Shown: in pieces, positions 5,555-40,783 of the stretch
Layout: each line of letters starts with the position of its first letter
How positions within the stretch are numbered: position 1 is the first letter of the stretch
NCBI GenBank assembly: GCA_034718215.1
Contig: JAYEMR010000108.1
Span: forward strand, 1 to 43,448
DNA: 43,448 nt
From: Chloroflexota bacterium
GTDB lineage: Bacteria; Chloroflexota; Anaerolineae; JAYEMR01
Direction: 5' to 3'
Program-made: the position numbers and the translations under genes
Notes under the pieces: generated by a model
Databases searched by the model: none
Told to the model about the DNA's origin: nothing
What the model saw: the letters and a program-made list of their open reading frames with translations, nothing else

Positions 5555-6454
5555 CTACAGGTATTCCCGCCAGGTGTATTGAGGCTGATAGCCAAAGGCC
5601 TGACGAGCCTTCTCAGTGCTGATGAAGGATTGATGTCCCTTCAATCCCTCGGCCAGGGGAAGCAGGTCAGGGCGGAATCTGGCCACCAGCTCGCGCGATT
5701 CCTCCAGGGCAGTGGTGTCAGCGCCATTTATGAAGTACACATCGTGGGGCGGTAGCCCATTGGCTTTCTCCATCAACTCCCGATGCGCCCAGGCCACATC
5801 CTCGCTGGCCACCCAGCCCCATAGCCAATCGCTCCAGCCCGTCGCCGGCTGCACATTCTCGGCCATGGCCCTGCGTCGCTCCGGGGGACAGATGCCCGCC
5901 GGCCTCGTGACGTAGGTGCGAATGTCATAGGCTCTGGTGAAGGAGGCCAAAAGCTCCTCTCCCACCAGCTTGGAGTAGGAGTAGGAATCCTCCACGTCGC
6001 TGGGGTGCTCCTCGTCAATGGGCAGATAGTGGATGGGGAAAGGCTTGTCGCTGATGCGGTAGCCGTGACCCAGGGCGCAGTTGCTCCCAGCCATCACCAC
6101 CAATTTCACCCTGGCCTGCACCGCGGCTTGCATCAGATAGTAGGTGCCCATGATGTTGGTGCGCATGGTCATGTCGAAGGGAGGTATCTCCCGCCCTTCC
6201 CTCTCCGCACGGGCCCGAATCTGGGGATGATCCACTGGATAAGGCACCGCTCCCAGGTGCTGGATGGCCTCCACTCCCTCCACCGCCCGCTGGCAGTCCT
6301 GGAAGCGGTTCAAATTCCCTTGGATCCAGGGCAGATGCGCTCGATCCTCCGGGGGACGGGAGCGGGAGAAGAGGACTAGCTCATAGTCCTCCTCCAGTTC
6401 GCGCACTACGTACTTGGCCAGGCGGCCGCTGCCGCCGGTGATGAGAACCTTCAT
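5555..6454 (-). CDS. NAD-dependent epimerase/dehydratase (extended SDR)
   Basis: Start moved to the ATG at 6454 (MKVLITGGSGRLAKYVV, Rossmann GxxGxxG), with GGAGG 6-7 nt upstream. The catalytic YxxxK context is YSYSKLVGE. Confidence 0.85.
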   Translation of the reverse strand: MKVLITGGSGRLAKYVVRELEEDYELVLFSRSRPPEDRAHLPWIQGNLNRFQDCQRAVEGVEAIQHLGAVPYPVDHPQIRARAEREGREIPPFDMTMRTNIMGTYYLMQAAVQARVKLVVMAGSNCALGHGYRISDKPFPIHYLPIDEEHPSDVEDSYSYSKLVGEELLASFTRAYDIRTYVTRPAGICPPERRRAMAENVQPATGWSDWLWGWVASEDVAWAHRELMEKANGLPPHDVYFINGADTTALEESRELVARFRPDLLPLAEGLKGHQSFISTEKARQAFGYQPQYTWREYL

Positions 6455-6476
6455 CGTTTTGTTCCTCCTGTTTTCT

Positions 6477-7730
6477 CTAGACACTCGCCATCTCCTGCAG
6501 TTCATCCAGATTGGCCTTCACCTTAGCCACCGCCTCCACGAAGTCGTCCATCCCCTCGCGTGAGCCCAGGAGCACCCTCTGAGGGAAGCCCAGCCAGCGA
6601 CCGGCTGCGCTCTCGGCATTGGGGCAATGCACCTGGGTATAGTCCACCTGCTGAGAGCTTGGAAAGTGGAACCGAGCTTCGGTAAAAAGCGGATGCTGAT
6701 ACAGCAGTCGGCCGCTACTCGCCCCGCAGGGTATGCCCTCAGCGAAGAGGGCTCGGGCCACTAGCTTAGCTGGCAAATCATCAAAGGCTTCAGCATGATA
6801 GCGCAGACGAGGGTAAACATAGCTCTGGCGGGTGATTCGCTCATCCTCGAGAGGCCAGCTCAGCCCCCCGATCTCAGCCAATCCCTGTCCCAGCGCCTCC
6901 GCGTTGCTGTTTTTCCGCTCCAGGATCTCATCCAGCCGCTCCAGTTGCACCAGCAGCACCGCTGCCTGGAACTCACTCATGCGGAAGTCCCAGCCCTGCT
7001 CCACGAAGAGGCTCCCCCGCTCTCCCATGCCCCGACCGTCGTTGTGCAGGATGTAGCACCCTTCGTATGCCTCCCGGTCGTTTGTGACGGCCATGCCCCC
7101 CTCACCAGCAGTGATCTGCTTGTCCTGTTGGAAGCTGAAGGCGCTGAGATCGGAGAGGGCGGCTACCTTCGTGCCCCGCCACTCAGTGCCGTGGGCATGG
7201 CAGGCGTCGGCAACTACTTTGAGATCGTGCTTGGCGGCGATCTCCATGACGCAGTCCATGTCGGCGGGATAGCCTCCCAGATGCAGGGGCACGATGAGCT
7301 TGGTGCGGGAGGTGATGGCTGCCTCAATGGCCTCGGGGGCAAGGCACAGGGTCTCAGGGTCCACATCAGCGAAGATGGGCACTGCGCCCAGCTGCAGCAC
7401 GGCTGTGGCGGTGGCGATGAAGGTATTGGGAGGCATGATAGCCTCATCGCCCGGACCCAAGCCGGCGGCAGCGTAGGCGATCTGCAGTGCGTCGGTGCCG
7501 CTGCCTGTGGCCACGCCGAATTCGCAGTCGTGATAAGCGGCGAATCTCTCCTCCAGTTGATACACCTTGGAGAGCGACATGTCGCCTCGGAAGATGTAAG
7601 GTGCGCTGGTCCAGCGTCGGCTATCCAGCACCTCCTTGAGAGCGGCCAGTTCCCGTTCGTCATAGATAGGCCGCTCTGGGAAGGGCTTTGTGCGCACTGG
7701 TGTTCCTCCTGTGATGGCCAATTTGCCCAT
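6477..7730 (-). CDS. DegT/DnrJ/EryC1/StrS-family PLP-dependent sugar aminotransferase
   Basis: 417 aa. N-terminus MGKLAITGGTPVRTKPFPERP, conserved lysine region FSFQQDKQITAGEGGMAVTND, and an AAGGGGGA RBS upstream. Confidence 0.85.
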   Translation of the reverse strand: MGKLAITGGTPVRTKPFPERPIYDERELAALKEVLDSRRWTSAPYIFRGDMSLSKVYQLEERFAAYHDCEFGVATGSGTDALQIAYAAAGLGPGDEAIMPPNTFIATATAVLQLGAVPIFADVDPETLCLAPEAIEAAITSRTKLIVPLHLGGYPADMDCVMEIAAKHDLKVVADACHAHGTEWRGTKVAALSDLSAFSFQQDKQITAGEGGMAVTNDREAYEGCYILHNDGRGMGERGSLFVEQGWDFRMSEFQAAVLLVQLERLDEILERKNSNAEALGQGLAEIGGLSWPLEDERITRQSYVYPRLRYHAEAFDDLPAKLVARALFAEGIPCGASSGRLLYQHPLFTEARFHFPSSQQVDYTQVHCPNAESAAGRWLGFPQRVLLGSREGMDDFVEAVAKVKANLDELQEMASV

Positions 7731-8255: not shown

Positions 8256-9095
8256 ATGCCTGAGCTACCTGAGGTACAGACCACCGTTGACGAGCTGCGC
8301 CCCCAACTCCTGGGCAGGACCTTCATCGACCTGAGGGCGGATTGGCCCCCCACCCTCGCCACCGCGCCCCCATCCCAGTTTCGAGCACGCCTGGTTGGCC
8401 AACGCATACTGAAGACGCGGAGGCGGGGCAAGTACTTGGTATTCCCCCTCTCCGGCGGGGACACATTGCTCATCCACCTCATGATGAGCGGCCAGCTGTC
8501 GGTCGTTCCCAGCTCCAACCCCTGTGATCGCCACACCCACACTCGGTTTCTGATGGATGACGGACGAGAGCTGAGGTTTCGCGATGTGCGAAAGCTGGGT
8601 CGAGCATACCTGGTGGCTGACCCAGAGGAAGTGGTAGGCCACTTGGGGCCGGAGCCACTGGCCGAGGAGTTCACCCTCCCTCAATTCCGACGTCTCATCG
8701 CCCGGCGACGAGGAAGGCTGAAGCCCCTATTGCTCAACCAGCAGTTCCTGGCAGGGCTGGGCAACATCTACGCCGACGAAACACTTTTCGCCGCTCGACT
8801 TCACCCTCTGCGTACAGCGGACACGTTGACCGAACAGGAGATTGAGCGCCTGTATCATTCTATCCGTGCGGTACTCACCCGCGCTCTGGCCCATCAGGGT
8901 ACGACGCTAGATGACTCCGCCTATCGGCGTCCCGATGGCCAGGCTGGAAATTACCAGGAGCGGCTGCAGGTCTACGGCCGGGAGGGGGAACCCTGCTTCT
9001 TGTGCGGTACCTCCATCCAGCGGATCGCGGTAAGCGAGCGCGGAACCTATTTCTGTCCCCAATGCCAGAGGCGATTCCTAACCTCAACTTCCTGA
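8256..9095 (+). CDS. mutM: formamidopyrimidine-DNA glycosylase
   Basis: N-terminal catalytic MPELPEV, an H2TH region, and a C-terminal zinc finger CFLCGTSIQRIAVSERGTYFCPQCQ. Confidence 0.95.
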   Translation: MPELPEVQTTVDELRPQLLGRTFIDLRADWPPTLATAPPSQFRARLVGQRILKTRRRGKYLVFPLSGGDTLLIHLMMSGQLSVVPSSNPCDRHTHTRFLMDDGRELRFRDVRKLGRAYLVADPEEVVGHLGPEPLAEEFTLPQFRRLIARRRGRLKPLLLNQQFLAGLGNIYADETLFAARLHPLRTADTLTEQEIERLYHSIRAVLTRALAHQGTTLDDSAYRRPDGQAGNYQERLQVYGREGEPCFLCGTSIQRIAVSERGTYFCPQCQRRFLTSTS

Positions 9096-9763: not shown

Positions 9764-11030
9764 TGTGTTCCGGTAACGCTAAAACTCCTCACTCTTGTGA
9801 AAGCCAAAATTCCCCATTAAAATAGGTCCCAGATGTCCATCTCCATCTCACGAAAGGGGGATCTGGGATCATGAAGATTCAAAACCTGTGGGATGTCCCC
9901 ATCGTCCGTCATCGCTTCCAAGTGGCCCTCCATGCGTTGATCCACGACAACAAATCCGCCACGGCCCGGAAGTTTAACCACGCCCGTAAGACCGTTCGAA
10001 GGTATATCGAGCGGTTCGAGGAGTATAAAAGGAGTGGTGACCTTAGCACCTTCTTAAATAAGCCCCGAGGGGACAATCATCGTACCCCTCGATGGATCGA
10101 GGACTGGGTAGTGGAGTGTTACCTGGAGGAGGACACCGAGCGAACTTGCCCCAACATCGCTCGAGAGTTGGGGAGAGTGCACGAGATTCCACTCACTCGC
10201 CAAACCATTCGCAATATTCTGATCCGTCGAGGAGTGTGGGAACCCACCCGAGAGCAGACTCCCATCATCCGCTTCGAAAAGGACAAACCTAATGCTCTCT
10301 GGCAGGTTGACCTGATTGAGCAAGCGAAGACTGATATAGGCAGGGTCTACGGCTTGGTAGTAGTGGATGACCACTCTCGCTATCTCATCACCCTGCACTT
10401 CCTGTTCACCAAAGAGGCGGAGGGGGTTCTCCATGCCCTTTATCTTGCCTTTTGCCGGTATGGCCTACCTACTAAGATTCTGTGCGACAAAGGAAGTCAG
10501 TTCTACTCCACCTTCCAGGGCAGCCTGAGTCGCTTTCAGAAAGTCATGGACCGATTAGGGGTCGAGGTGGAATTCACCAGTCGTCCCCAGACCAAGGGGA
10601 AGGTGGAGAAGTTGATCCAATTTATTGAGCGTGATTTCTTGGCCGTGTACCGCCATCGGGTGAGCCATCTCCAGCAGCTCAACGAGCACGCGGAGGGGTG
10701 GCGCCAAGGGTACAACAGGCGACCTCATGAAGGCATCCACACCTATCCCCAGCAGCGATACCAACCTTCCTCTTGCAAGGTGGGAAAGGACGCTTTGTGG
10801 GAGGCCTTTGCTCAAGAAGAGCGAAGCGAGATAGCACCATCCGATGGTGGGGTGGCAAATACTCGGTGCCCAGCGATTACATTGGTTCTCATGTCTGGGT
10901 TCAGACCTTTGGTGGGCAGATGAAGATCCGAGCTGGGGTTCGCAACAAGGTCATCGCCACCCACTCTATCCCTCCCTAGTGGGAAAGTTTAGCTTTTACA
11001 TACCTGGGCAGATTTAGCTTTTACGGAACA
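9764..11030 (+). mobile_element. insertion sequence with a single DDE (rve) transposase, imperfect terminal inverted repeats and subterminal repeats
   Basis: Left end TGTGTTCCGGTAACGCTAAAAC. Right end, reverse complement, TGTTCCGTAAAAGCTAAATC. Both ends are flanked by GGCC (9760-9763 and 11031-11034). TTTAGCTTTTAC occurs twice at the right end (10988-10999, 11013-11024), with related copies at the left end. The element looks lower in GC than its surroundings. Confidence 0.7.
9871..10979 (+). pseudogene. DDE transposase (HTH + rve integrase core), frameshifted near 10790-10815
   Basis: HTH (ARKFNHARKTVRRYIERFEE). DDE core WQVDL...VVVDDHSRY...LCDKGSQFYS...KGKVEKLIQFIERDF...YNRRPHEGI. The C-terminal beta-barrel-like segment RRAKRDSTIRWWGGKYSVPSDYIGSHVWVQTFGGQMKI is in another frame (track ORF 10773..10979). 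Confidence 0.75.
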
Positions 11031-11059
11031 GGCCTGAGAGCAGCTGGGAAAGGATACAG

Positions 11060-11407
11060 ATGCGGATCGAGAGGTACGACTTCGGCCACATCGTCATTGA
11101 GGGTCAGAGCTACAGGAGTGATGTGATCCTGCTGCCCGACCGAGTTATCCCCAACTGGCGGCGTGAACAGGGGCACAGCCTCTCGCCCTACGATTTGCAG
11201 GATGTTGTGCAGGCCCAGGAGCAGGTGGACACCCTGATCGTCGGCACCGGGGCCTATGGGATGATGGATGTGCCATCCGAGACCCGCTGCTACCTGCAGG
11301 AACAAGGCATCCAGGTGATCATCCGGCGCACGGGATCAGCGGTGGAGGAGTACAATAGGCGGCGAGTAGACCAGCCGGTGGCCGCGGCGCTGCACTTGAC
11401 CTGTTAG
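11060..11407 (+). CDS. Mth938-like domain protein
   Basis: 115 aa. MRIERYDFGHIVIEGQSYRSDVILLPDRVIPNWRREQGHSLSPYDL...DTLIVGTGAYGMM...VIIRRTGSAVEEYN matches the Mth938/DUF498 pattern. Confidence 0.75.
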   Translation: MRIERYDFGHIVIEGQSYRSDVILLPDRVIPNWRREQGHSLSPYDLQDVVQAQEQVDTLIVGTGAYGMMDVPSETRCYLQEQGIQVIIRRTGSAVEEYNRRRVDQPVAAALHLTC

Positions 11408-23110: not shown

Positions 23111-24988
23111 TCAGATATATTCAGCTAGATCGAGGGCCGGGGCGTGGGTCCCCTTCCAGTAGCGCACCAGGGCGCGCAGCTCGCTGTCGGGGACAAAGCA
23201 GCCCTGAATGCGCACCAGCTTGGAGGAATCAGGAGGCATGTACAGCATGTCGCCTTCCCCCAGGAGCTTTTCCGCGCCCTCTGTATCCAGCACCACCCGC
23301 GAGTCCACGCGGGAGGCAGTGGCGAAGGAGATGCGAGCTGGAAAATTGGCCTTGATCAGACCAGTCACCACATCTACACTGGGCCGCTGGGTAGCGATGA
23401 CAAGATGAATACCTGTGGCGCGTGCCATCTGAGCGATGCGGCAAACCAGCCGCTCCACCTCCTGAGGGGCAGCCACCATCAGGTCGGCCAGCTCGTCAAT
23501 CACCACGATGATGTAGGGTAGGCCTCGCTCACCACGGCTGGCCACGCGCTGATTGTAGTCCATCAGATGACTAGCTCCGATGTCGGCGAAGCGCTGGTAT
23601 CGCTCATCCATCTGGTGGGTGACCCATTTGAGGGCTTCCACCACTTGCTCCACTTCTACCATCACCGGCGCCAGGAGGTGGGGAATGCCATTGTAAAGGG
23701 TCAACTCCACCATTTTGGGGTCAACCATGATGAACTTCAATTGGTCTGGGGTGTTGTTGCAGAGCAAGCAGGAGACGATGGATTTGATGCAGACCGACTT
23801 CCCCGAGCCGGTTGCGCCGGCGATCAACAGGTGAGGCATGGTGGACAGGTCAGCCACCACCGGCCAGCCCGACACCTCGCGTCCCAAGGCGATTTTAAGC
23901 GGCGACTTCAACCGCTGGAACTCTTCTGATTCCATCACCCCTCGCAGGGAGACCAGAGCCGGCTGCGAGTTGGGTACCTCAATCCCCACCAGTGACCGCC
24001 CCGGGATGGGGGTCTCAATGCGGATGGGGGAAGCGGCCAAGGCTAGGGCCAAGTCATCCGCCCGAGCGCTGATCTGGCTGACCTTGACCTTCTTACGCTC
24101 GCCACTGCGCTGAGTGATGAAGCCTGGTTCCACGCCAAACTGGGTGACAACTGGCCCCTGATTAACCTCCATCACCGTGGCCGGCAGGCCGAAATGAGTC
24201 AGCGTCTTCTCGATGGTCCGCGCTCGACGGCGGATCTCAGTCTGGCTTACCTCTGGCTCTGGCGAGTCGGTCAGGATCTCGGCGATGGGAGGAAGCTCCC
24301 AATGCTCTCCACCAATGATACGAGGACGAGGGAAAAACATGCCTGGAGGGGCGCGGCGTGGAGAAGGTGAGGGAGCTGGAGAGGGCCTCTCGGATGAAGA
24401 TGGGGTGCTTTGAACAGGGGATGAGGATGCCCTCTCGCCTTGGGCCATCCTCCACTGCCGCAACCTCCGCCCCATCCGCCCCAGAATCGCTGCGATCTCC
24501 AGTGGAGAGAGGCTGAGCAAGAGAGAGATAGCCGCCCCGATCAATGCAAATAGGAGAATATAGCCTCCCCAATAGCCAAGGCTGCTGATCAACAAGCTGG
24601 ATAGGCGCCAGCCCAGGTATCCGCCGCCTCCTCCATAACGAGCGACCGCCTCCCTCTCAGCCCCAGGGATGAGGAGATGTGTCAGGGCCAGAAGCAGACA
24701 GGCCAGCACCACCGCGCCTGCCACCCGTTCCCAAGCCACGGCAGGAGAGCGGCCCATGCCTCTGAGTAGGAGCCACAGCCCCGTCGCCCCTAGTCCTATC
24801 GGCGCCAGGTAGACCCCCCACCCAAACCCCTGTCGCAGCAGGTGCAACCAGCCGCCGGTGACCATCCCCTGCCTGAAGGATACCAAGCTCAACAGGGTGA
24901 AGAGGGCGGCGATGACGAAGATGATGCCCATCACCTGGGGGCGAAATATGAAAAGTCTCCGACCCTTCTTCCGTTTAGCCATATTCAT
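23111..24988 (-). CDS. ftsK: DNA translocase FtsK
   Basis: 625 aa. N-terminal TM helices, linker, motor domain with Walker A LLIAGATGSGKSV and Walker B IIVVIDELADLM, and a C-terminal gamma-like end. Confidence 0.95.
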   Translation of the reverse strand: MNMAKRKKGRRLFIFRPQVMGIIFVIAALFTLLSLVSFRQGMVTGGWLHLLRQGFGWGVYLAPIGLGATGLWLLLRGMGRSPAVAWERVAGAVVLACLLLALTHLLIPGAEREAVARYGGGGGYLGWRLSSLLISSLGYWGGYILLFALIGAAISLLLSLSPLEIAAILGRMGRRLRQWRMAQGERASSSPVQSTPSSSERPSPAPSPSPRRAPPGMFFPRPRIIGGEHWELPPIAEILTDSPEPEVSQTEIRRRARTIEKTLTHFGLPATVMEVNQGPVVTQFGVEPGFITQRSGERKKVKVSQISARADDLALALAASPIRIETPIPGRSLVGIEVPNSQPALVSLRGVMESEEFQRLKSPLKIALGREVSGWPVVADLSTMPHLLIAGATGSGKSVCIKSIVSCLLCNNTPDQLKFIMVDPKMVELTLYNGIPHLLAPVMVEVEQVVEALKWVTHQMDERYQRFADIGASHLMDYNQRVASRGERGLPYIIVVIDELADLMVAAPQEVERLVCRIAQMARATGIHLVIATQRPSVDVVTGLIKANFPARISFATASRVDSRVVLDTEGAEKLLGEGDMLYMPPDSSKLVRIQGCFVPDSELRALVRYWKGTHAPALDLAEYI

Positions 24989-25230
24989 CCCTGATCACCA
25001 ATACTATAACGATCACGCCTCTATTTCAAGCTCATCGCCGAGGGAGAGCCGTCCTATTTGACAACGACCAATTCGCCGACGAGGTGCGCACTGACAAGCT
25101 GGGTAACCTCATTGCCCTAAAGCGGGGAGAGGGCCAGGGGCCACATCCTCGCGTCATGCTGGCTGGGCACATGGACGAGATTGGGCTGATGATCACCGCA
25201 TTCAAGGAAGGCTTCCTGCACTTCACCACG
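24899..25230 (+). repeat. direct repeat R1 (ftsK 5' end + ftsK/M42 spacer + internal M42 fragment, with a 159-bp deletion)
   Basis: 24899-25068 aligns to 26866-27035, and 25069-25230 aligns to 27195-27356. I count 6 mismatches in 332 aligned positions. R1 lacks the 27036-27194 segment. Confidence 0.9.
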
Positions 25231-25426
25231 CTGGGGCTTCTCCCTCGCCGTCTCCGATGAGATAACCCGGATTATATAGCATCCGTGTGTCAGCAGTATG
25301 GCAGGGATGTTACAGTTCTGAAACAGTGTGTTACGGTTTTGAACGCTATTCGACCTCCAAGGCAAAGCAAACGCCCTCGAAACACTGAGGAATAGCCTAT
25401 TGGGAACGAGGATCGCCAGGCCTGGG

Positions 25427-26776
25427 TCAAATGCCCAGCACCAACTTGGCGATGGTAAAGTAGATGAACAACCCCGTGGCGTCCACCAGGGTGTCCAGGG
25501 CTGGGGCTGAGGCCACCGTCGGGTCTATGCCTATCAACTCGGCGAGGAAGGGCAGGAGGGCACCAATAATGTTGGCACTCAGCACCACGGCCAAGAGGGC
25601 TGCGGCTGCCGTCATTGCCAATCCTATGTCCACCCCCCAGGTCAGAGCCCGAACCATGGTGATCGCCGCCAGGCCCACCCCCATGATCAGCCCGGTGGCC
25701 ATCTCGTGCCAGATAGTGCGCAGGAAGTCCTTGAGATCGAGCTGCCTCATCGCTAGGGCGCGGATGACGATGGTGATGGTCTGAGAGCCTGTATTGCCCC
25801 CCGTGCCGATGAGCAGGGGAATGAAGATGGAGAGGACCACCCTAGAGGCCAGCGCGTCCTCGAAATGGCGCATCACCTCGCCAGTCAGCGTGTGGGTGAC
25901 GAAGAGCAGCAGTAGCCAGCCAATACGCTTGCGGGCCATGGCCAGAGGGCTGACGGATAGGTAGGGCTGATCCAGAGGTCGGGAACCACCCAGCCGATGA
26001 ATGTCCTCCGTGGCCTCCTCCTCCAGGACCTCCACCAGGTCGTCCACGGTGATGACGCTCAGCAGGCGATCTCCCTCGTCCACCACGGGCAGGGCCAGCA
26101 GATCGTAGCGGGACATCAGCCGGGCGCACTCCTCCTGATCGGCGTCAGCTCGGACGAAGATCACGTCCGGGTCCATGAGCTCGCCCACCGGGGAGAAGGG
26201 ATGGGCTACGATGAGCTGACGCAGGCTCACCACACCACACAACACCCCCTCTCGATCCACGACGAAAAGATAGTAGGCGGTCTCCACCTCCGGAGCCCAG
26301 GAGCGGATGGCCTCGATGGCCTGCGTGGCCGTCATGCGCGGGCGCAGGGCCAGAAACTCGGAGGTCATCAGTCCGCCGGCCGTCTTGTCGGGGTGCAGGA
26401 GCAGGGGCTGTACCTCCTCCGGCTCGGCCATCTGGTCCAGTGCGGCAGTGACGCGGTCGGGGAGGAGATCGCCCAACAGGTCCGCTGCCTCGTCGGGCTG
26501 CATCTCATCCAGGATGGGCGCGAGTGTGCTCACATCCAGCACCTCGGCCAGTTCAGCCACCTCCGCTTCCGCCATTTTCTCCAGGATATCGGCCGCGTCC
26601 TCCACACCGATCTGAGGCAGTAGCTCCTGCTGCTGCGCCGTTGGCAGTTCAGCGAAGATGTCCGCCTGGTCGGGGGGGCGCAGCGATTCGATGAGGGCGA
26701 TGGCTCCCTCCAAGTCGTTGGCCGCTAGAAGGTTGTGAAGATGCGCTAGTGCCTCGGCGACGATGGGCTGTTCCAT
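25427..26776 (-). CDS. mgtE: magnesium transporter MgtE
   Basis: 449 aa. N-domain (PPDQADIFAELP), tandem CBS domains, and a C-terminal 5-TM domain (PLLIGTGGNTGSQ). AAGGGGG RBS upstream. Confidence 0.95.
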   Translation of the reverse strand: MEQPIVAEALAHLHNLLAANDLEGAIALIESLRPPDQADIFAELPTAQQQELLPQIGVEDAADILEKMAEAEVAELAEVLDVSTLAPILDEMQPDEAADLLGDLLPDRVTAALDQMAEPEEVQPLLLHPDKTAGGLMTSEFLALRPRMTATQAIEAIRSWAPEVETAYYLFVVDREGVLCGVVSLRQLIVAHPFSPVGELMDPDVIFVRADADQEECARLMSRYDLLALPVVDEGDRLLSVITVDDLVEVLEEEATEDIHRLGGSRPLDQPYLSVSPLAMARKRIGWLLLLFVTHTLTGEVMRHFEDALASRVVLSIFIPLLIGTGGNTGSQTITIVIRALAMRQLDLKDFLRTIWHEMATGLIMGVGLAAITMVRALTWGVDIGLAMTAAAALLAVVLSANIIGALLPFLAELIGIDPTVASAPALDTLVDATGLFIYFTIAKLVLGI

Positions 26777-26865
26777 AGGTTAACCCCCTTTGATTTCGAG
26801 TTTAGATAAATGAGCGCAGAGGATCCAAGAGCAATTGACCCCTGAGTGGATGCTGCAGAGTCTGG

Positions 26866-27356
26866 GAAGAGGGCGGCGATGACGAAGATGATGCCCATCA
26901 CCTGGGGGCGAAATATGAAAAGTCTCCGACCCTTCTTCCGTTTAGCCATATTCATCCCTGATCACCAATACTATAATGATCACGCCTCTATGTCAAGCTC
27001 ATCGCCGAGGGAGGGCCGTCCTATTTGACAACGACGATTAATAAGCGTATAATAGCCTTCCATATTCCCTAAAGGACGAAACCAGGAGGTTACTGATTAT
27101 GGAGGTGATACCCTTTTTGCGTGCTCTGTCGGAGGCGGCAGGTGTCTCAGGATATGAGAATAGCATCCGAGAGTTGGTAATTGAGAAGTTCAGCCAGTTC
27201 GCCGACGAGGTGCGCACTGACAAGCTGGGCAACCTCATTGCCCTAAAGCGGGGAGAGGGCCAGGGGCCACATCCTCGCGTCATGCTGGCTGGGCACATGG
27301 ACGAGATCGGGCTGATGATCACCGCATTCAAGGAAGGCTTCCTGCACTTCACCACG
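26866..27356 (+). repeat. direct repeat R2 (ftsK 5' fragment + spacer + promoter and 5' part of the intact M42 gene)
   Basis: Partner of R1. Its ftsK-derived part gives the chimeric track ORF 26746..26955, whose first 30 aa are identical to the FtsK N-terminus. Confidence 0.9.
27025..27053 (+). promoter_or_regulatory. consensus sigma-70 promoter TTGACA-N17-TATAAT
   Basis: -35 TTGACA at 27025-27030 and -10 TATAAT at 27048-27053. AGGAGG follows, then the ATG at 27099. Confidence 0.7.
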
Positions 27357-28172
27357 GTGGGGGGCATCGACCCCAGGGTGCTACTGGGGCAGGAGGTGGT
27401 CGTCCACGGGCGACGCAATCTGCCGGGCATCATCAGCAGCCGCCCGCCCCATGTGCTACCTGAGGAGGAGCGAGAGAAGCCTCGTCCGACGGAGAAGCTT
27501 TTTATTGACCTCGGACTGCCTCAGGAGGAGCTTACCCAATGGGTGCAGGTGGGCGACCTGGTCACCATTCAGCGGCGCTTCACCGAGCTGAAAAATGGCT
27601 GGGCGGCGGGCAAGGCATTTGACGATCGGGCGGCGGTGACAGCCATCGCCCTCTGCCTGGCCGAGCTGGCCCGGATGCGCCACGAGTGGGATGTGTATGC
27701 GGTGGCCACAGTGCAGGAGGAGGTGGGGCTGCGGGGAGCGATCACCAGCACCTACGACATCATGCCCCAGGTGGGCATCGCCATAGATGTGGGCTTCGGC
27801 GCTGGGCCGGGTCAGCCGGAGGGAAAGACCATCGAGATGGACAAGGGGCCAGCTATCGCCTTCGGCCCCAACATCCATCCTAAGGTCCATGAGGGGCTGG
27901 TGGAAGCGGCCCAGGTGTTGGAGATCCCCCATCAGATCGAGCCCATCCCTGGCAGGAGCGGCACCGATGCCTGGGCCATGCAGATCACCCGAGAGGGGAT
28001 CCCCACCGGGCTGCTCTCCATCCCTCTGCGCTACATGCACACTTCAGTGGAGACGCTGGTGATAAAGGACATCGAGCGCACTGGAAGGCTGCTGGCTGGA
28101 TTCATAGGGCGGTTGGATGAGGCCTTTATCAAGGCGCTGAATGAGCAACTCCAAACAGAGGAGGCAGCGTGA
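27099..28172 (+). CDS. M42 family metallopeptidase (glutamyl aminopeptidase / FrvX-like)
   Basis: 357 aa. GVSGYE, MLAGHMDEIGLMIT, AFDDRAAV, VQEEVGLRGA, and the C-terminal RYMHTSVE. Confidence 0.9.
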   Translation: MEVIPFLRALSEAAGVSGYENSIRELVIEKFSQFADEVRTDKLGNLIALKRGEGQGPHPRVMLAGHMDEIGLMITAFKEGFLHFTTVGGIDPRVLLGQEVVVHGRRNLPGIISSRPPHVLPEEEREKPRPTEKLFIDLGLPQEELTQWVQVGDLVTIQRRFTELKNGWAAGKAFDDRAAVTAIALCLAELARMRHEWDVYAVATVQEEVGLRGAITSTYDIMPQVGIAIDVGFGAGPGQPEGKTIEMDKGPAIAFGPNIHPKVHEGLVEAAQVLEIPHQIEPIPGRSGTDAWAMQITREGIPTGLLSIPLRYMHTSVETLVIKDIERTGRLLAGFIGRLDEAFIKALNEQLQTEEAA

Positions 28173-29209
28173 TTCTACAAGAACTATCCGAGGCTTTCGG
28201 TGTATCGGGGCACGAAAGCGCGGTCCGCGAAATCGTCCTGGAAGCCATCCAGGAAGATGTGGACAGCTATCAGGTGGACGCCCTGGGCAACCTCATCGCT
28301 TTTAAGAGAGCCCATTCGCAGTTCGCGATTCGCAATCCGCTCAAAGTAATGGTCTCAGCCCACATGGACGAGGTGGGGATCATGGTCACCCACGCCGATA
28401 AAAACGGGCGGTTGCACTTCGACGTCGTGGGTGGACTAGGTGCAAGGGTGCTGCTTGCCCAGCCAGTGGTTTTGGGCGATGATGGACTGTCGGGCGTGAT
28501 CGGCCTCAAGCCCATTCACCTGCAGGAGAAGGAGGAGCGAAAGAAGCTTCCCAAGGTGTCGGATCTGACCATTGACATCGGGGTTGCTGAGAAGGAGGAG
28601 GCGGAGAAGGCGGTCTCTAAGGGCACCTATGGTGCTTTCGCCACCCCCTTCACCGAGCTGGGCGGTGAACTACGAACGGTGAAGGGCAAGGCTTTCGACG
28701 ACCGAGCGGGATGCGCAGTGCTGATCGAGTTGCTGAAGGCGGACTATCCCTTCGATCTGTGGGCCGCCTTCACCGTGCAGGAAGAGCTGGGGCTGCGGGG
28801 AGCGCGGGTGGCTGGCTTTCGAGTGGATCCCGACGTAGCCTTCGTGTTGGAGGGCACTGTCTGCGACGATCTGCCCAAGGAGAGGGATGAGAGCCCCACG
28901 ACGGAGCTGGGCAAGGGGCCAGCTATCACTATCCGCGACCGTTCGGTGGTGTGCGATCCCCGGTTGATCAAGCATCTGGTGGAGGTAGCCAAGGCAGAGG
29001 ATATCCCCTATCAATTCAAGCAGCCGGGGATAGGAGGAACCGACGCGGGGGCGATCCACCTGGTCAAGGAGGGGGTACCCTCAGTCGTGGTCTCAGTCCC
29101 CAGTCGTTACATACATTCTCCGGTGAGCCTGTTGAGCCTGGTTGACTTCGAGAACACGGTGCGGTTGATGCAGGCGGCGCTCTCGCGCCTGCCGGAAAGC
29201 TGGACTTAG
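28169..29209 (+). CDS. M42 family metallopeptidase, tandem paralogue
   Basis: 346 aa. GVSGHE, VSAHMDEVGIMVT, AFDDRAGC, VQEELGLRGA, RYIHSPVS. The GTG start overlaps the upstream stop by 4 nt. Confidence 0.9.
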   Translation: MILQELSEAFGVSGHESAVREIVLEAIQEDVDSYQVDALGNLIAFKRAHSQFAIRNPLKVMVSAHMDEVGIMVTHADKNGRLHFDVVGGLGARVLLAQPVVLGDDGLSGVIGLKPIHLQEKEERKKLPKVSDLTIDIGVAEKEEAEKAVSKGTYGAFATPFTELGGELRTVKGKAFDDRAGCAVLIELLKADYPFDLWAAFTVQEELGLRGARVAGFRVDPDVAFVLEGTVCDDLPKERDESPTTELGKGPAITIRDRSVVCDPRLIKHLVEVAKAEDIPYQFKQPGIGGTDAGAIHLVKEGVPSVVVSVPSRYIHSPVSLLSLVDFENTVRLMQAALSRLPESWT

Positions 29210-30114
29210 ACGATCACCCGCAGCCCCTGGGGGATGACCTCCATCTCCAGCCGGTGGGCTGCGGTGCAGAGGATCTCCCCATCCGCGTGGGCCACCAGAT
29301 CATCCTCCGAGGTGATGACCACTCGCGTCGCGTGATCCATCGTGATCTTCGGCTCGTGGATGTGCGTGCCCTGTATGGCCTTGGGTAGGAAATCGAGGAT
29401 TTTGAGGCGGCTCATCTCATCGGCCAGGAAGACGTCAAAGAGGCCATCATCCACCTCGGCTTGAGGGGTGAGCAGGAAGCCGCCGGCGTAGCGTCGACCA
29501 TTGGATACGGAGATGAGCAGCGCTGGCTGGGTGTGCACCTCCTGGCCGTTGTTAATGGTCAGGGTGGGAATTTGATAGTGGAGGAGCAGGGTCTTGAGCA
29601 GGGCCCAGAAGTATAGGGCAAAGCCTCGCAGCCTCTTGATCTTGGTGCTCTCAACGGCCACCTGGGCATCGAAGCCGATCCCCACCCCATTGCCGAAATA
29701 GCGGTCTGGAAGGCCATCCACATGAACGAAGCCCAGGTCAATCACCCTGGTCTGCCCGGCGGCCAGATGTCCCACAGCAGCCTCCACATCCAGCGGGATG
29801 CCCACTCCGTAGGCGAAATCGTTCCCTGAGCCTACTGGAAGAACGCCCAGCGTCCCGGCTGGACCTGTCTTTTGAGCCTGCATCAGCCCATTGATCACCT
29901 CCTGGCTGGTGCCGTCCCCGCCCACAGCTACCACTGTCTCACAGCCAGCCTCAGCCGCCGCTTGCGCCAACTCGATGGCCTCCCCTGGATAGCTGGTGTA
30001 CTTCACGTCAAAGTCCAGCCCTCTCTCAGCCAGCAGGGGTAGGACCGCATCCGCCCTCTGGCGCGCCTTCCCCCGTGCGGCCGCTGGATTGACGATGACC
30101 TTCATTTTAGCCAT
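29206..30114 (-). CDS. diacylglycerol-kinase-family lipid kinase (YegS/BmrU type)
   Basis: 302 aa. VAVGGDGTSQEVINGL and LPVGSGNDFA motifs. Confidence 0.85.
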   Translation of the reverse strand: MAKMKVIVNPAAARGKARQRADAVLPLLAERGLDFDVKYTSYPGEAIELAQAAAEAGCETVVAVGGDGTSQEVINGLMQAQKTGPAGTLGVLPVGSGNDFAYGVGIPLDVEAAVGHLAAGQTRVIDLGFVHVDGLPDRYFGNGVGIGFDAQVAVESTKIKRLRGFALYFWALLKTLLLHYQIPTLTINNGQEVHTQPALLISVSNGRRYAGGFLLTPQAEVDDGLFDVFLADEMSRLKILDFLPKAIQGTHIHEPKITMDHATRVVITSEDDLVAHADGEILCTAAHRLEMEVIPQGLRVIV

Positions 30115-38374: not shown

Positions 38375-38447
38375 GCCCCTGTAGCTCAGCGGACAGAGCA
38401 CCTGCCTTCTAAGCAGGGTGCCGGGGGTTCGAATCCCTCCAGGGGCA
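38375..38447 (+). tRNA. tRNA-Arg (anticodon UCU), 73 nt, CCA not encoded
   Basis: Hand-folded cloverleaf. Acceptor GCCCCTG/CAGGGGC, D stem GCTC/GAGC, anticodon stem CCTGC/GCAGG with loop CT-TCT-AA. Variable loop GTGCC, T arm GGGGG-TTCGAAT-CCCTC, discriminator A. Confidence 0.9.
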
Positions 38448-38495
38448 CTGGACTAGGAGGTCGATGCAAGTGGGATGGGCCTGAATTACCGGTGA

Positions 38496-38518: not shown

Positions 38519-38695
38519 TTATGCGGGACTGCCTATAACACTGAGCATCTCCTCAGGATTGCCCGCCATTTCTTCCATCGCCTCCTGCCTGCACCTGATC
38601 AGGCACAGGTGGTCGCTCCAGGGAATCTCCGCTGTGCCAAAACACATCGAGCGCTCGTGGCCCTTGCCGGTGACCAGCACCAGATCGCCACCTGA
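38519..38695 (-). pseudogene. diverged duplicate of the murE 3' end (last ~57 codons), carrying a 24-nt element insertion
   Basis: Reads GDLVLVTGKGHERSMCFGTAEIPWSD-HLCLIRCR-QEAMEEMAGNPEEML...stop. Authentic MurE reads GDLVLVTGKGHERSMCFGTTEYPWSD-QEAVREALREVLCR. 38612-38689 aligns to 39206-39283 with 10 differences in 78 nt by my count. Confidence 0.8.
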
Positions 38696-39095
38696 TGCGG
38701 CTTATCGGTTCATCCCTGCCTGTGGCAGACAGGAGAGTGGCGAGGAGCATCGGCAGTGGCTTCAGCTCCCGCTTCAATGGGTCGAGGACCAGTCCAAGTG
38801 CCTCCAGGGTGAACGCCCCCAGGAGTGTGTGGTCGCCCTTTTCACCAAAGATGACATCAGCCCCGCCTACCCTTTCACCATACCGGAAGAAAGCAAAGCC
38901 CTTCTTGCGGACGACCTTAGTGCCATTGGCCAGTCGGAATTCCTCTTCCGCTATTGGTTTAATACCGAGCTTCTGCAAAATAGGGATGGGGACCACCGAA
39001 TAGACGGCCCCAGAATCAATCAGAAAATCCACCTTCTCCGTCACCTCAGGATTAGCCGGGTTTCCAACTTCAATTTCCAACACCGTCAGTCCCAT
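38553..39095 (-). CDS. retropepsin-like (clan AA) aspartic protease with an anomalous C-terminal extension of about 60 aa
   Basis: ATG at 39095 with AGGAGG 5 nt upstream. MGLTVLEIEVGNP...VDFLIDSGAVYSVVP (DSGA active site)...LLGAFTLEALGLVLDPLKRELKPLPMLLA is a complete domain of about 119 aa. The ORF then reads on through the 19-nt hairpin, the murE fragment (out of frame) and element copy 6. Confidence 0.7.
   Translation of the reverse strand: MGLTVLEIEVGNPANPEVTEKVDFLIDSGAVYSVVPIPILQKLGIKPIAEEEFRLANGTKVVRKKGFAFFRYGERVGGADVIFGEKGDHTLLGAFTLEALGLVLDPLKRELKPLPMLLATLLSATGRDEPISRIRWRSGAGHRQGPRALDVFWHSGDSLERPPVPDQVQAGGDGRNGGQS
38586..38611 (-). repeat. 26-nt interleaved-palindrome element, copy 6 (inside the murE fragment)
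   Basis: Plus strand TGCCTGCACCTGATCAGGCACAGGTG. Comparison with murE shows that 38588-38611 (24 nt) is the inserted block. Confidence 0.9.
38715..38733 (-). repeat. 19-nt hairpin element, right copy of the inverted pair
   Basis: Plus strand CCTGCCTGTGGCAGACAGG, the exact reverse complement of 38496-38514. It sits directly after the conserved end of the retropepsin-like domain. Confidence 0.85.
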
Positions 39096-39160: not shown

Positions 39161-40783
39161 TCAACGGCACAGCACCTCTCTCAGCGCTTCCCTCACCGCC
39201 TCCTGGTCGCTCCAGGGATACTCCGTCGTGCCAAAACACATGGAGCGCTCGTGACCCTTGCCAGTCACCAGTACCAGGTCGCCCGGGCGGGCGCGCTCGA
39301 TGGCGAAACGGATCGCCTCCCCTCGATCCTCGATCCGCCAGTAGCTCTCCCCCTCCACTGCCCCTTCACTCTCGCAGCCAGCAGCGATCTGCTCAATGAT
39401 CTCCTCCAGCGGCTCGGTGCGGGGGTCCTCGGCGGTGAGCACGGCGAAATCAGCCAGCCGGGCGGCGATCTCCCCCATCATGGGCCGCTTCCCCACGTCG
39501 CGCAGCCCCGCGCAGCCGAAGACTACCCACACCCGCCCCTCGGCCAGCCCGCGCACGGTCCTCAGCGCCTGCTCCAGCGCGGCCGGCGTGTGGGCGAAGT
39601 CCACGATCACGGTGAAGGGCTGCCCACCTGTGGCCGACAGGCTACAATCAATGCGCTCCATGCGGCCGGAAATGCCCCCCAGCGCCCTGATGCCAGCCTG
39701 CATGGCCTCCACGGGCGCCTCCAGGGCTATCCCCACCGCGATGGCCGCCAGGCAGTTGTACACGTTGTAGCGCCCGATGAGAGGGATATGGACCGGGAAG
39801 TCTCCCACCGGGGTGTGTGCGGTGAAGGCGAGCGCCTGGGGCGAGGGGCGGATATCCGAGGCGGTGATGTCAGCGGGATGAGCCAGAGCGCCTGTACCCT
39901 TCAGGGTGCCTGTACCCTTTAGGGTATAAGAGAGGTGGCGGTTAGCGGGGATGGCGCGCAGATAATCGTAGGAGGGATCGTCGGCGTTGAGCACGGCGGT
40001 CTTGGGCAGGCCCGGCTTTTGGCGGGCGGAGGCCAGCCCTCGGAAGAGCATGGCCTTCGCCTCCCTGTATTTCTCGAATGTCCCGTGGGCATAGAGATGC
40101 TCGTGGGTGATGTTGGTCACGACCGCTATATCGAAATCGCAGGCCGTGACCCGATGCTGGGCCAGCCCCTCGGAGGTGGCCTCCAGCACGGCGTGGGTTG
40201 TGCCCGCGGCCACCATCTCCACCAGGTAGCGCTGCACGTCGGGGGCATCGGGCGTGGTGGTGTGCAGCCCGGTATCGTGAACTGTGTCACCGAGGACCGC
40301 GTTCACGGTGGAGATCATCCCCGTCCTGTAGCCTGCGGCGCGGAGGATGTGGTAGATCAGGTTGACGGTGGTGGTCTTGCCATCTGTTCCGGTCACGCCG
40401 ATCATGGCCATCTGACGGGCGGGGAAATTGTGCCAGGCGGCGCTCAGGTGAGCCAACGCCTCCCGGCCGGAGGGGACGACGATGAGGGGCACTTTTTGAT
40501 GCACTCGATGGCCCAGAGTTAAACTCTGGGCCATCGAGGCCATCGAGTGTTCCACCACGACTGCCGCCGCTCCCCGCTGGATCGCGTCGGGGATAAAATC
40601 GTGTCCATCCACCTGAACACCCTCGTAGGCCACGAATAGATTCCCCGCCCTCACCTCCCGCGAATCCTCGGTGATGCCGGTGATGAGCGCCCCCGGATCG
40701 CCGTGGAGCGTGGCCTGCGGAAGCGCGGGGAGCAGTTCTCTCAGCGGGCGACCTGTTGCCTCGTTCACTCGTCTCTCCGTCAA
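39161..40783 (-). CDS. murE: UDP-N-acetylmuramoyl-L-alanyl-D-glutamate--2,6-diaminopimelate ligase (MurE)
   Basis: 540 aa. P-loop GVTGTDGKTTT, Mur ligase middle and C-terminal domains, and an EDPR variant of the DNPR motif. The start overlaps the pcrA stop by 4 nt. Confidence 0.95.
   Translation of the reverse strand: MTERRVNEATGRPLRELLPALPQATLHGDPGALITGITEDSREVRAGNLFVAYEGVQVDGHDFIPDAIQRGAAAVVVEHSMASMAQSLTLGHRVHQKVPLIVVPSGREALAHLSAAWHNFPARQMAMIGVTGTDGKTTTVNLIYHILRAAGYRTGMISTVNAVLGDTVHDTGLHTTTPDAPDVQRYLVEMVAAGTTHAVLEATSEGLAQHRVTACDFDIAVVTNITHEHLYAHGTFEKYREAKAMLFRGLASARQKPGLPKTAVLNADDPSYDYLRAIPANRHLSYTLKGTGTLKGTGALAHPADITASDIRPSPQALAFTAHTPVGDFPVHIPLIGRYNVYNCLAAIAVGIALEAPVEAMQAGIRALGGISGRMERIDCSLSATGGQPFTVIVDFAHTPAALEQALRTVRGLAEGRVWVVFGCAGLRDVGKRPMMGEIAARLADFAVLTAEDPRTEPLEEIIEQIAAGCESEGAVEGESYWRIEDRGEAIRFAIERARPGDLVLVTGKGHERSMCFGTTEYPWSDQEAVREALREVLCR
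39890..39925 (-). repeat. 18-nt tandem duplication inside murE (LKGTGT / LKGTGA)
   Basis: Plus strand GCCTGTACCCTTCAGGGT (39890-39907) and GCCTGTACCCTTTAGGGT (39908-39925), with one mismatch. Each unit contains ACCCTTYAGGGT. Confidence 0.9.

Follow-up and report, generated by a model that had tools for sequence, protein, structure and literature searches.

How did mgtE, the gene of a housekeeping Mg2+ channel, come to lie between two direct copies of the junction between ftsK and an M42 peptidase gene? This question is raised by a 43,448-nt contig of an uncultured Anaerolineae bacterium, which was analysed over its whole length (the window, to which all coordinates refer). The left copy of the junction is called R1 and the right, complete copy R2 (Table 1). 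The answer preferred here, with a rough probability of 0.55, is that one illegitimate duplication-insertion brought the organism's own mgtE, or that of a close relative, into the ftsK/M42 promoter region.

A repeat search of the window yields two co-linear direct blocks, 24899-25068 paired with 26866-27035 and 25068-25236 paired with 27194-27362, each with 98% identity. They are by far the longest repeats of the window. The runner-up is one 80-nt pair at 88%, which excludes chance as the source of R1 and R2. In pairwise alignment the blocks form a single continuous repeat that is broken in the left copy by a 159-nt gap. Base-by-base comparison gives seven mismatches in 338 aligned nt (R1 positions 25010, 25025, 25047, 25071, 25104, 25182, and 25231), which corresponds to a divergence of 2.1%. 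The original prediction, made from the sequence, had counted six mismatches in 332 nt; this is exact for an end point at 25230, but the repeats extend 6 nt further, to 25236 and 27362, and include a seventh mismatch. All markers that distinguish R1 from R2 lie to the right of an identical stretch of 111 nt (24899-25009).

Sequence and translations confirm that the repeats are made of the ftsK start, the intergenic spacer, and part of the M42 gene. Codons 1-30 of ftsK are present in both copies with identical translations (MNMAKRKKGRRLFIFRPQVMGIIFVIAALF), and so are the shared spacer and M42 codons 33-88. The 159 nt that have no counterpart in R1 (27036-27194, with a boundary that is ambiguous by 1 nt, a single C being shared at the deletion joint) carry the -10 box, the ribosome-binding site (RBS), and codons 1-32 of the M42 gene in R2, and the alignment agrees with the earlier claim on this point as well. 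The unique DNA between the repeats comprises 1,629 nt (25237-26865). Its sole credible gene in the list of open reading frames (ORFs) and in Pfam is mgtE, as predicted. The encoded protein aligns over its full length to MgtE from Thermus thermophilus (2YVX, E=7e-94), and its pore Asp is aligned with that of 2YVX in the ...LSDVTG... / ...LVDATG... motif. The protein thus has the properties of an MgtE channel, namely an MgtE_N domain, tandem CBS domains, and a C-terminal MgtE domain of five transmembrane segments with the pore Asp. Pfam assigns ftsK and the M42 gene in agreement with the identities first given to them.

The rearrangement has two novel joints, M42 codon 88 to the insert (25236/25237) and the insert to ftsK codon 30 (26865/26866). 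The 90%-identity cluster of the window MgtE has two other members, and both are Logan assembly contigs (L055 from SRR26901928 and L106 from SRR26901925). Each is exactly 1,695 nt long, spans window positions 25201-26895, and carries three single-nucleotide differences from the window, in different sets. The two contigs come from independent sequencing runs, on which a literature search returned nothing useful, and cover both joints. The joints are therefore real, and they exist in the reads of at least three slightly different populations. Into R1 the contigs extend for 36 nt, a little beyond the R1-specific base 25231, and into R2 for 30 nt; these end points are as expected, because an assembly graph with k=31 breaks where the flank is repeated. 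Neither contig branches within mgtE or on crossing the two similarity limits, which argues against a second, near-identical mgtE that has different flanks in these populations. Overall, the event thus looks like a relocation.

Across the 111-nt identical stretch, short k-mers cannot prove the linkage of R1 to ftsK and of R2 to the M42 gene. For users of metagenome-assembled genomes (MAGs), this stretch makes the locus prone to break, as in the two 1,695-nt contigs. It also leaves room for a mis-threaded assembly, in which the chromosome has one intact junction, and a second molecule, circular or tandem, carries mgtE and the deleted junction copy and was joined in through the 111 nt. All R1/R2 markers lie beyond the stretch, and the Logan contigs reach just 30-36 nt into the repeats, which would suit such an error. 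However, both joints are real in three data sets, and a 2-kb circle with mgtE only could not replicate and would be possible solely as an excision product of the integrated form. In addition, mgtE is intact and under purifying selection (ratio of nonsynonymous to synonymous divergence, dN/dS, of 0.14 against L105; L numbers denote fetched loci), which is hard to square with a transient molecule. Mis-threading is therefore regarded as very improbable.

A different and conserved locus harbors mgtE in relatives. In four related lineages (L056; L057-L060; L112; L113), with MgtE identities of 74-79%, mgtE is placed directly upstream of murJ, with an XcyI-type restriction-modification (R-M) pair between the two genes in L057-L059. 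Where the upstream region is covered (L056, L057, and L112), the order is ahpC-fabF-fabH-small ORF-GNAT-fpg-mgtE. The nearest relative, L105 (88% aa and 87% nt identity), is a short contig with 223 nt upstream of mgtE, which are 87% identical to L057 and 78% to L056. The window contains no murJ, and no orthologous fpg is found next to mgtE. The similarity between the window and all relatives stops at the mgtE stop codon and 0 to ~12 nt upstream of the ATG; in blastn, 26788 is the last aligned position for L105, L057, and L060, and the ATG (26776) for L056. Relatives keep mgtE in the order fpg-leader-mgtE-murJ and the leader is gone from the window, so that gene order identifies the window arrangement as the derived one. 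This supports the original prediction that mgtE is an insert within a duplicated ftsK/M42 junction.

The leader between fpg and mgtE in relatives deserves a description of its own. It is conserved, ~200-270 nt long (L105 1-223; L057 9700-10000; L056 9640-10000; L112 5690-6000; L113 1-194), contains a -10-like TATACT, and is absent from the window. Its 3′ end takes the form of a 13-bp GC-rich hairpin and a T-run directly before the RBS, and an upstream leader segment can pair with the 3′ arm of the hairpin in the manner of a terminator and antiterminator. The identity of the leader is 79-88%, compared to 81-82% for the mgtE coding sequence with a synonymous divergence (dS) of 0.4-0.8. As far as sequence can tell, this architecture is typical of an attenuator or riboswitch. 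No Rfam family, the M-box included, matches the relatives’ leaders at E<=10, and a literature search returned nothing useful on an mgtE riboswitch in Chloroflexi. The leader may be considered a candidate for an undescribed cis-regulatory RNA, with weak covariation over 3-4 distinct sequences. The 99.5% leader identity of L056 and L112 was at one point taken as a sign of strong constraint. This reading was withdrawn, as the two loci (mgtE at 10001-11350 and 6001-7350, respectively) are 99.6% identical across 5.6 kb upstream and mosaic inside mgtE. Per 100-nt window, identity is 95-100% in the leader and up to ~700 nt into mgtE, 47-78% over the ~650 nt at the 3′ end that encode the membrane domain, and 98% again in murJ, a pattern that reads as a recombination mosaic.

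The downstream side of the native locus varies as well. In L057 (11416-13780), and also in L058 and L059, the genes of the XcyI-type restriction enzyme and of a DNA methyltransferase stand between mgtE and murJ, and a PhdYeFM antitoxin gene follows the pair in L057 (13790-14047). In L112 and L113 murJ comes directly after mgtE. In L105, mgtE is immediately followed by sequence that matches the 3′ end of the methyltransferase gene, without an XcyI gene. The native mgtE locus thus seems to be an insertion hot spot.

The insert in the window is composed of three parts, a left filler of 190 nt, mgtE with its RBS, and a right filler of 77 nt. This composite build, the loss of the native mgtE leader, and the placement of mgtE behind a copy of the ftsK promoter had been missed by the original prediction. 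The fillers contain no remnant of fpg, murJ, or R-M genes. Within the left filler (25310-25345) lies a tandem 16-mer, GTTACAGTTCTGAAAC-agtgt-GTTACGGTTTTGAAC, with a period of 21 nt. Its first unit is a near-palindrome and may be an operator remnant from the donor sequence.

By sequence comparison, mgtE looks native rather than foreign. MgtE identity to relatives is 88% in sample ERZ24794679, 79% in 3300005098, and 76% in 3300024353. These values are in a range similar to that of the flanking housekeeping genes in the same samples (ERZ24794679: M42a 84%, M42b 86%, RecJ 81%; 3300005098: M42a 83%, M42b 80%, M23 87%; 3300024353: FtsK 79%, methyltransferase 78%, M23 71%), where the contigs of one sample are not proven to belong to one genome. 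A foreign origin by composition was rejected, as the GC content is not anomalous. The dS of mgtE is 0.42 to the nearest relative and at most 0.006 among the three population variants. The 2.1% divergence between R1 and R2 lies between these two values; if no gene conversion took place, the event would therefore be recent on the species scale and older than the sampled population diversity.

The mechanism that we infer for this lineage-specific event starts with the duplication of a 497-bp stretch (ftsK codons 1-30, the 143-nt spacer, and M42 codons 1-88). A composite segment of 1,629 bp would have been captured at the joint, consisting of the 190-nt filler, mgtE with only its RBS, and the 77-nt filler. 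A later deletion of 159 nt in the left copy would have removed the -10 box, the RBS, and the first 32 codons of the duplicated M42 start. The same product may equally be described as a short tandem duplication with a captured insert, as the repair of staggered breaks, or as a replication template switch that re-enters 497 bp behind its departure point. Any of these routes would need two illegitimate joints, plus a third at the mgtE RBS. The repeats are taken as the target sequence on the sole basis that each copy continues into an intact gene on one side.

Mobile elements were considered and set aside. An insertion sequence or composite transposon was ruled out by the lack of a transposase in or beside the insert, the lack of inverted termini, and a duplication of 497 bp. 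The nearest transposase gene (9871-10923) is 15 kb away and is the only mobility gene seen in the window. A site-specific integrative element was ruled out as well, with no integrase near the insert and the only tRNA gene of the window at 38375-38448. At the insert there is no tRNA gene, no significant Rfam match, and no significant inverted repeat (only 20-37 nt with 70-82% complementarity). A duplication associated with an inversion was dismissed because the repeats are direct and not inverted.

Homologous integration was the first option of the original prediction. A Campbell single crossover, as with suicide plasmids and episomes, leaves the insert between two direct copies of the homologous segment and can be reversed by recombination between them. 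Applied to the window, a small circle with mgtE and a junction copy of ~340-500 bp, which came from a sibling strain or had been excised earlier from the same structure, would have integrated by one crossover. The R1-insert-R2 layout is exactly the product of such a crossover, and the position of all markers to the right of 24899-25009 would allow R1 to consist of a left part from the chromosome and a right part from the donor. The circle, however, must already carry both illegitimate joints (M42 codon 88 to the insert and the insert to ftsK codon 30). The crossover therefore accounts for a re-integration only and merely postpones the origin. Moreover, a 2-kb circle without replication functions would not be maintained. 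Unlike the known Campbell cases, the insert lacks vector, replication, and integrase functions, and the homologous segment spans two gene starts.

The four differences between R1 and R2 in the M42 part bear on the same choice. Every one of them is derived on the R1 side, whereas R2 agrees with three outgroups (one site is ambiguous). This fits the decay of a nonfunctional copy. Three of these R1-specific changes are synonymous, which is what an allele would show that had diverged while it was still functional, and so small a number of sites does not decide between the two readings; two functional alleles, on the other hand, should share the differences, and R2 has 0 of them. Taken together, Campbell integration is judged unlikely as the source of the present structure. 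Direct duplication-insertion, which had been the second option of the original prediction, is preferred as the more economical route, and it has a documented precedent (PMC2853133).

Another route would be a large tandem duplication that was followed by a deletion. Here mgtE would initially have been located some distance downstream of the M42 block, a duplication would have covered the DNA between ftsK codon 30 and a point just upstream of mgtE, and the first copy would then have lost everything from M42 codon 88 to just beyond mgtE. Partial gene copies in bacteria most commonly arise by tandem duplication with subsequent loss, and the neighborhood is rearranged among relatives, where rho, the M23 gene, and the M42 block appear in differing orders. 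Nevertheless, no second mgtE or other duplicated material is found within 16 kb downstream, the Logan contigs are unbranched, and the loss of the native leader would stay unexplained. This route is considered improbable.

The preferred duplication-insertion requires an older ftsK/M42 junction, and the two genes had been proposed as ancestral neighbors. Their adjacency predates the duplication, because both repeat copies contain it. An uninterrupted junction was looked for and was seen in none of the ftsK and M42 relatives. Of 54 ftsK loci from GTDB genomes and 41 from JGI metagenomes, none carries either an M42 gene or mgtE near ftsK. The best ftsK relative (L086, 79%) keeps the order M23-methyltransferase-ftsK and has three co-directional genes upstream of ftsK (DUF362, a PHP-domain gene, and a gene without assignment). 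Relatives of M42a at 80-85% identity (L061-L063, L107-L111) keep the M42a-M42b pair, with ResB and hypothetical genes or other small ORFs upstream. L062 and L063 share the order M42a-M42b-DAGK-recJ with the window, and L061 has the M42a-M42b pair alone. Similarity to L062 starts at 27020, just ahead of the M42 -35 box. A partial ORF upstream of the M42 gene in L063 was tried as FtsK and rejected as low-complexity. Since no ftsK or M42 relative examined shows the adjacency, it appears to be lineage-specific itself.

Several points weigh against the duplication-insertion. The empty ftsK-M42 site is found in no relative examined, so that the target is deduced from its two copies only, and neither filler resembles any fetched locus or another part of the window. 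The synonymous nature of most R1-specific changes leans slightly toward DNA from a sibling strain. The analysis covers this one contig and not the donor site; relocation and acquisition from a sibling strain are not separable in this setting, and microhomology at the joints is not assessable. If the copies have undergone gene conversion, their 2% divergence would underestimate the age of the event. Finally, the promoters and the terminator on which the regulatory consequences depend are consensus matches only.

These consequences for expression, as we infer them, begin with the copy of the ftsK promoter that faces mgtE, in which a repeat mismatch at 26992 makes the R2 ftsK-type -35 box perfect. 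In a consensus scan, the stretch from 26968 to the mgtE ATG is free of promoter-like and terminator-like sites, and an Rfam scan found no riboswitch in the new upstream region of mgtE. As the 77-nt filler is promoter-less and no terminator precedes mgtE, the gene is most likely transcribed from the duplicated ftsK promoter. The transcript would run through a chimeric ORF of 69 codons that joins FtsK residues 1-30 to 39 new residues and terminates 31 nt inside mgtE in a different frame; nothing in Pfam matched this ORF. The terminator-containing leader is absent here, and the relocation would thereby have replaced the native control of mgtE. Before the deletion, the perfect M42 promoter in R1 would fire antisense into mgtE. 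The loss of 159 nt takes away its -10 box and would silence this promoter, which is a plausible selective reason for the deletion. Both ftsK and the M42 gene would each keep one intact start and promoter copy.

Excision or amplification via the repeats is plausible. Recombination in the left 170 nt would restore the ancestral junction; if it took place in the right 168 nt, M42a would lose its promoter, its RBS, and its first 32 codons.

Table 1. Features of the ftsK-mgtE-M42 locus in the window, in order of position
Feature	Positions	Strand	Basis or remark
ftsK, 625 aa	23111-24988	-	Pfam: FtsK_4TM, FtsK_alpha, FtsK_SpoIIIE
R1, left junction copy, 338 nt	24899-25236	.	repeat search, alignment, base comparison
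R1 part: ftsK codons 1-30	24899-24988	-	
R1 part: spacer	24989-25068		
Promoter-like site of intact ftsK, TTGAAA-17-TAGTAT, 9/12	25001-25029	-	consensus match
Point of the 159-nt deletion in R1	25068/25069		
R1 part: M42 fragment, codons 33-88	25069-25236	+	
Left filler, 190 nt	25237-25426	.	no similarity to relatives’ mgtE flanks or rest of window
Terminator-like hairpin for mgtE, in left filler	25391-25374	-	terminator scan; 36 nt past mgtE stop
mgtE, 449 aa, intact	25427-26776	-	Pfam: MgtE_N (PF03448), 2 CBS (PF00571), MgtE (PF01769)
Chimeric 69-codon ORF	26746-26955	-	ORF list, translations
mgtE RBS region (GGGGG)	26777-26788	-	last bases similar to relatives
Right filler, 77 nt	26789-26865	.	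stands in place of conserved native leader
R2, right and complete junction copy, 497 nt	26866-27362	.	repeat search, alignment, base comparison
R2 part: ftsK 5′ fragment	26866-26955	-	
R2 parts: 143-nt spacer with both promoters, then M42 codons 1-88			
ftsK promoter-like copy facing mgtE, TTGACA-17-TAGTAT, 10/12	26968-26996	-	consensus match
M42 promoter, TTGACA-17-TATAAT, 12/12	27025-27053	+	consensus match; R1 keeps -35 box only
Segment missing from R1 (-10 box, RBS, M42 codons 1-32)	27036-27194	+	alignment, sequence
M42 -10 box (TATAAT); RBS (AGGAGG); ATG	27048-27053; 27085-27090; 27099		
M42a peptidase gene, 357 aa	27099-28172	+	Pfam
M42b, tandem paralogue of M42a	28169-29209		Pfam

Insertion with long target duplication, the known rearrangement that the locus most resembles, is said to have been described by Nobusato et al. 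in 2000. Furuta, Abe & Kobayashi (2010, PMC2853133) document it for R-M genes from several bacterial phyla. The reported flanking repeats measure 46 to ~420 bp with 93-100% identity, no mobility genes are present, DNA breakage by R-M enzymes is invoked, and the cases were proven against a genome with the empty site (PMC2853133). That survey asked for direct repeats >30 bp that flank the insert (criterion iii, PMC2853133), to which the 338- and 497-nt copies at 98% identity correspond, for the absence of mobility genes in an insert <20 kb, which holds for the 1,629 nt with mgtE as sole gene, and for restriction and modification genes in the insert, in whose place the cargo here is mgtE. The locus is filed as the same kind of rearrangement with another cargo, because the R-M criterion defined the survey and not the rearrangement type. 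Both share a short gene segment, the lack of a transposase or integrase, long direct repeats of ordinary chromosomal sequence (here the presumed target), and repeats that could permit amplification or excision. The differences are the housekeeping cargo, the secondary 159-nt deletion in one copy, the composite insert with two fillers, and the absence, among the relatives examined, of an empty-site genome in which the repeat sequence is single-copy.

Two other systems offer partial parallels. The rnk-citT module of Cit+ Escherichia coli in the long-term evolution experiment reportedly arose by promoter capture through tandem duplication (Blount et al., 2012). As in rnk-citT, a promoter copy of another gene is placed before a transporter gene and the original gene stays intact. 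In rnk-citT, however, the transporter gene lies inside the duplicated segment and expression was measured, whereas mgtE comes from another locus and its expression is predicted from consensus promoters. In eukaryotic genomics, fork stalling and template switching and microhomology-mediated break-induced replication (FoSTeS/MMBIR) are defined by microhomology at the joints together with identifiable templates. The locus resembles their products in its target duplication with an insertion at the joint, its composite insert, and its small secondary deletion, but it is not assignable to this class, as the donor sequences and with them the joint microhomology are not at hand.

The type of rearrangement is thus already known, its housekeeping cargo would be a new instance, and the regulatory consequence, if correct, is neat. 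The locus would be a clean natural case of a core gene that was relocated without a transposon and rewired in a single event, with its leader lost, a promoter copy gained, and an antisense promoter disabled by a later deletion. Insertion with long target duplication, so far described for R-M genes, would be able to move ordinary genes too, which bears on the evolution of gene order and regulation in bacteria with few mobile elements. A bolder view is that the transposon-free move of a housekeeping gene swapped an attenuator-type leader for a cell-division promoter copy in one step, and that the repeats keep mgtE as an amplifiable and excisable module that tunes Mg2+ uptake in the population. 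This view is quite unlikely; if true, the “life cycle” proposed for R-M genes would extend to ordinary cellular genes. The current understanding of MgtE, FtsK, and M42 peptidases is unchanged in any case.

The surroundings of the locus are those of an ordinary chromosome, with secDF, rho, recJ, uvrD, and a Mur ligase gene, and the best matches of the window are all MAGs of Anaerolineae/Chloroflexota. Exact-protein look-ups of the window MgtE and M42a returned no record. No FtsK_gamma domain was found in the window FtsK by Pfam. The gamma domain of FtsK reads FtsK-orienting polar sequences (KOPS) and activates XerD. A full-length ORF is readable in 10 of 11 checked ftsK relatives, all of 699-767 aa, and L086 has the gamma domain (PF09397). 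At the ftsK 3′ end (23111-23200), ~240 nt are missing compared to L086 and L064, and the sequences become similar again where the downstream methyltransferase gene begins.

Further observations concern other parts of the window. Between M42b and the DAGK/YegS gene, L062 (5929-7341) and L063 (2840-4249) carry a Fucose_iso_C gene of ~470 aa that the window (29206-30114) lacks; the DAGK gene of L062 is broken into fragments. An fpg/nei paralogue (8256-9095), 17 kb from mgtE, shares 35% identity with the fpg that precedes mgtE in relatives and is followed by a 181-aa ORF and the transposase gene at 9871-10923, which belongs to the rve family. A second, older partial duplication pairs 38567-38698 with 39204-39283 (87.5% nt identity over 80 nt, 64% aa identity over 44 residues). 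The fragment at 38567-38698 resembles the last ~40 codons of the Mur ligase gene (39161-40783, minus strand), from which it lies ~500-600 nt downstream. It adjoins the tRNA-Arg gene (38375-38448) and may be the scar of an old integration or a further case of insertion with target duplication.

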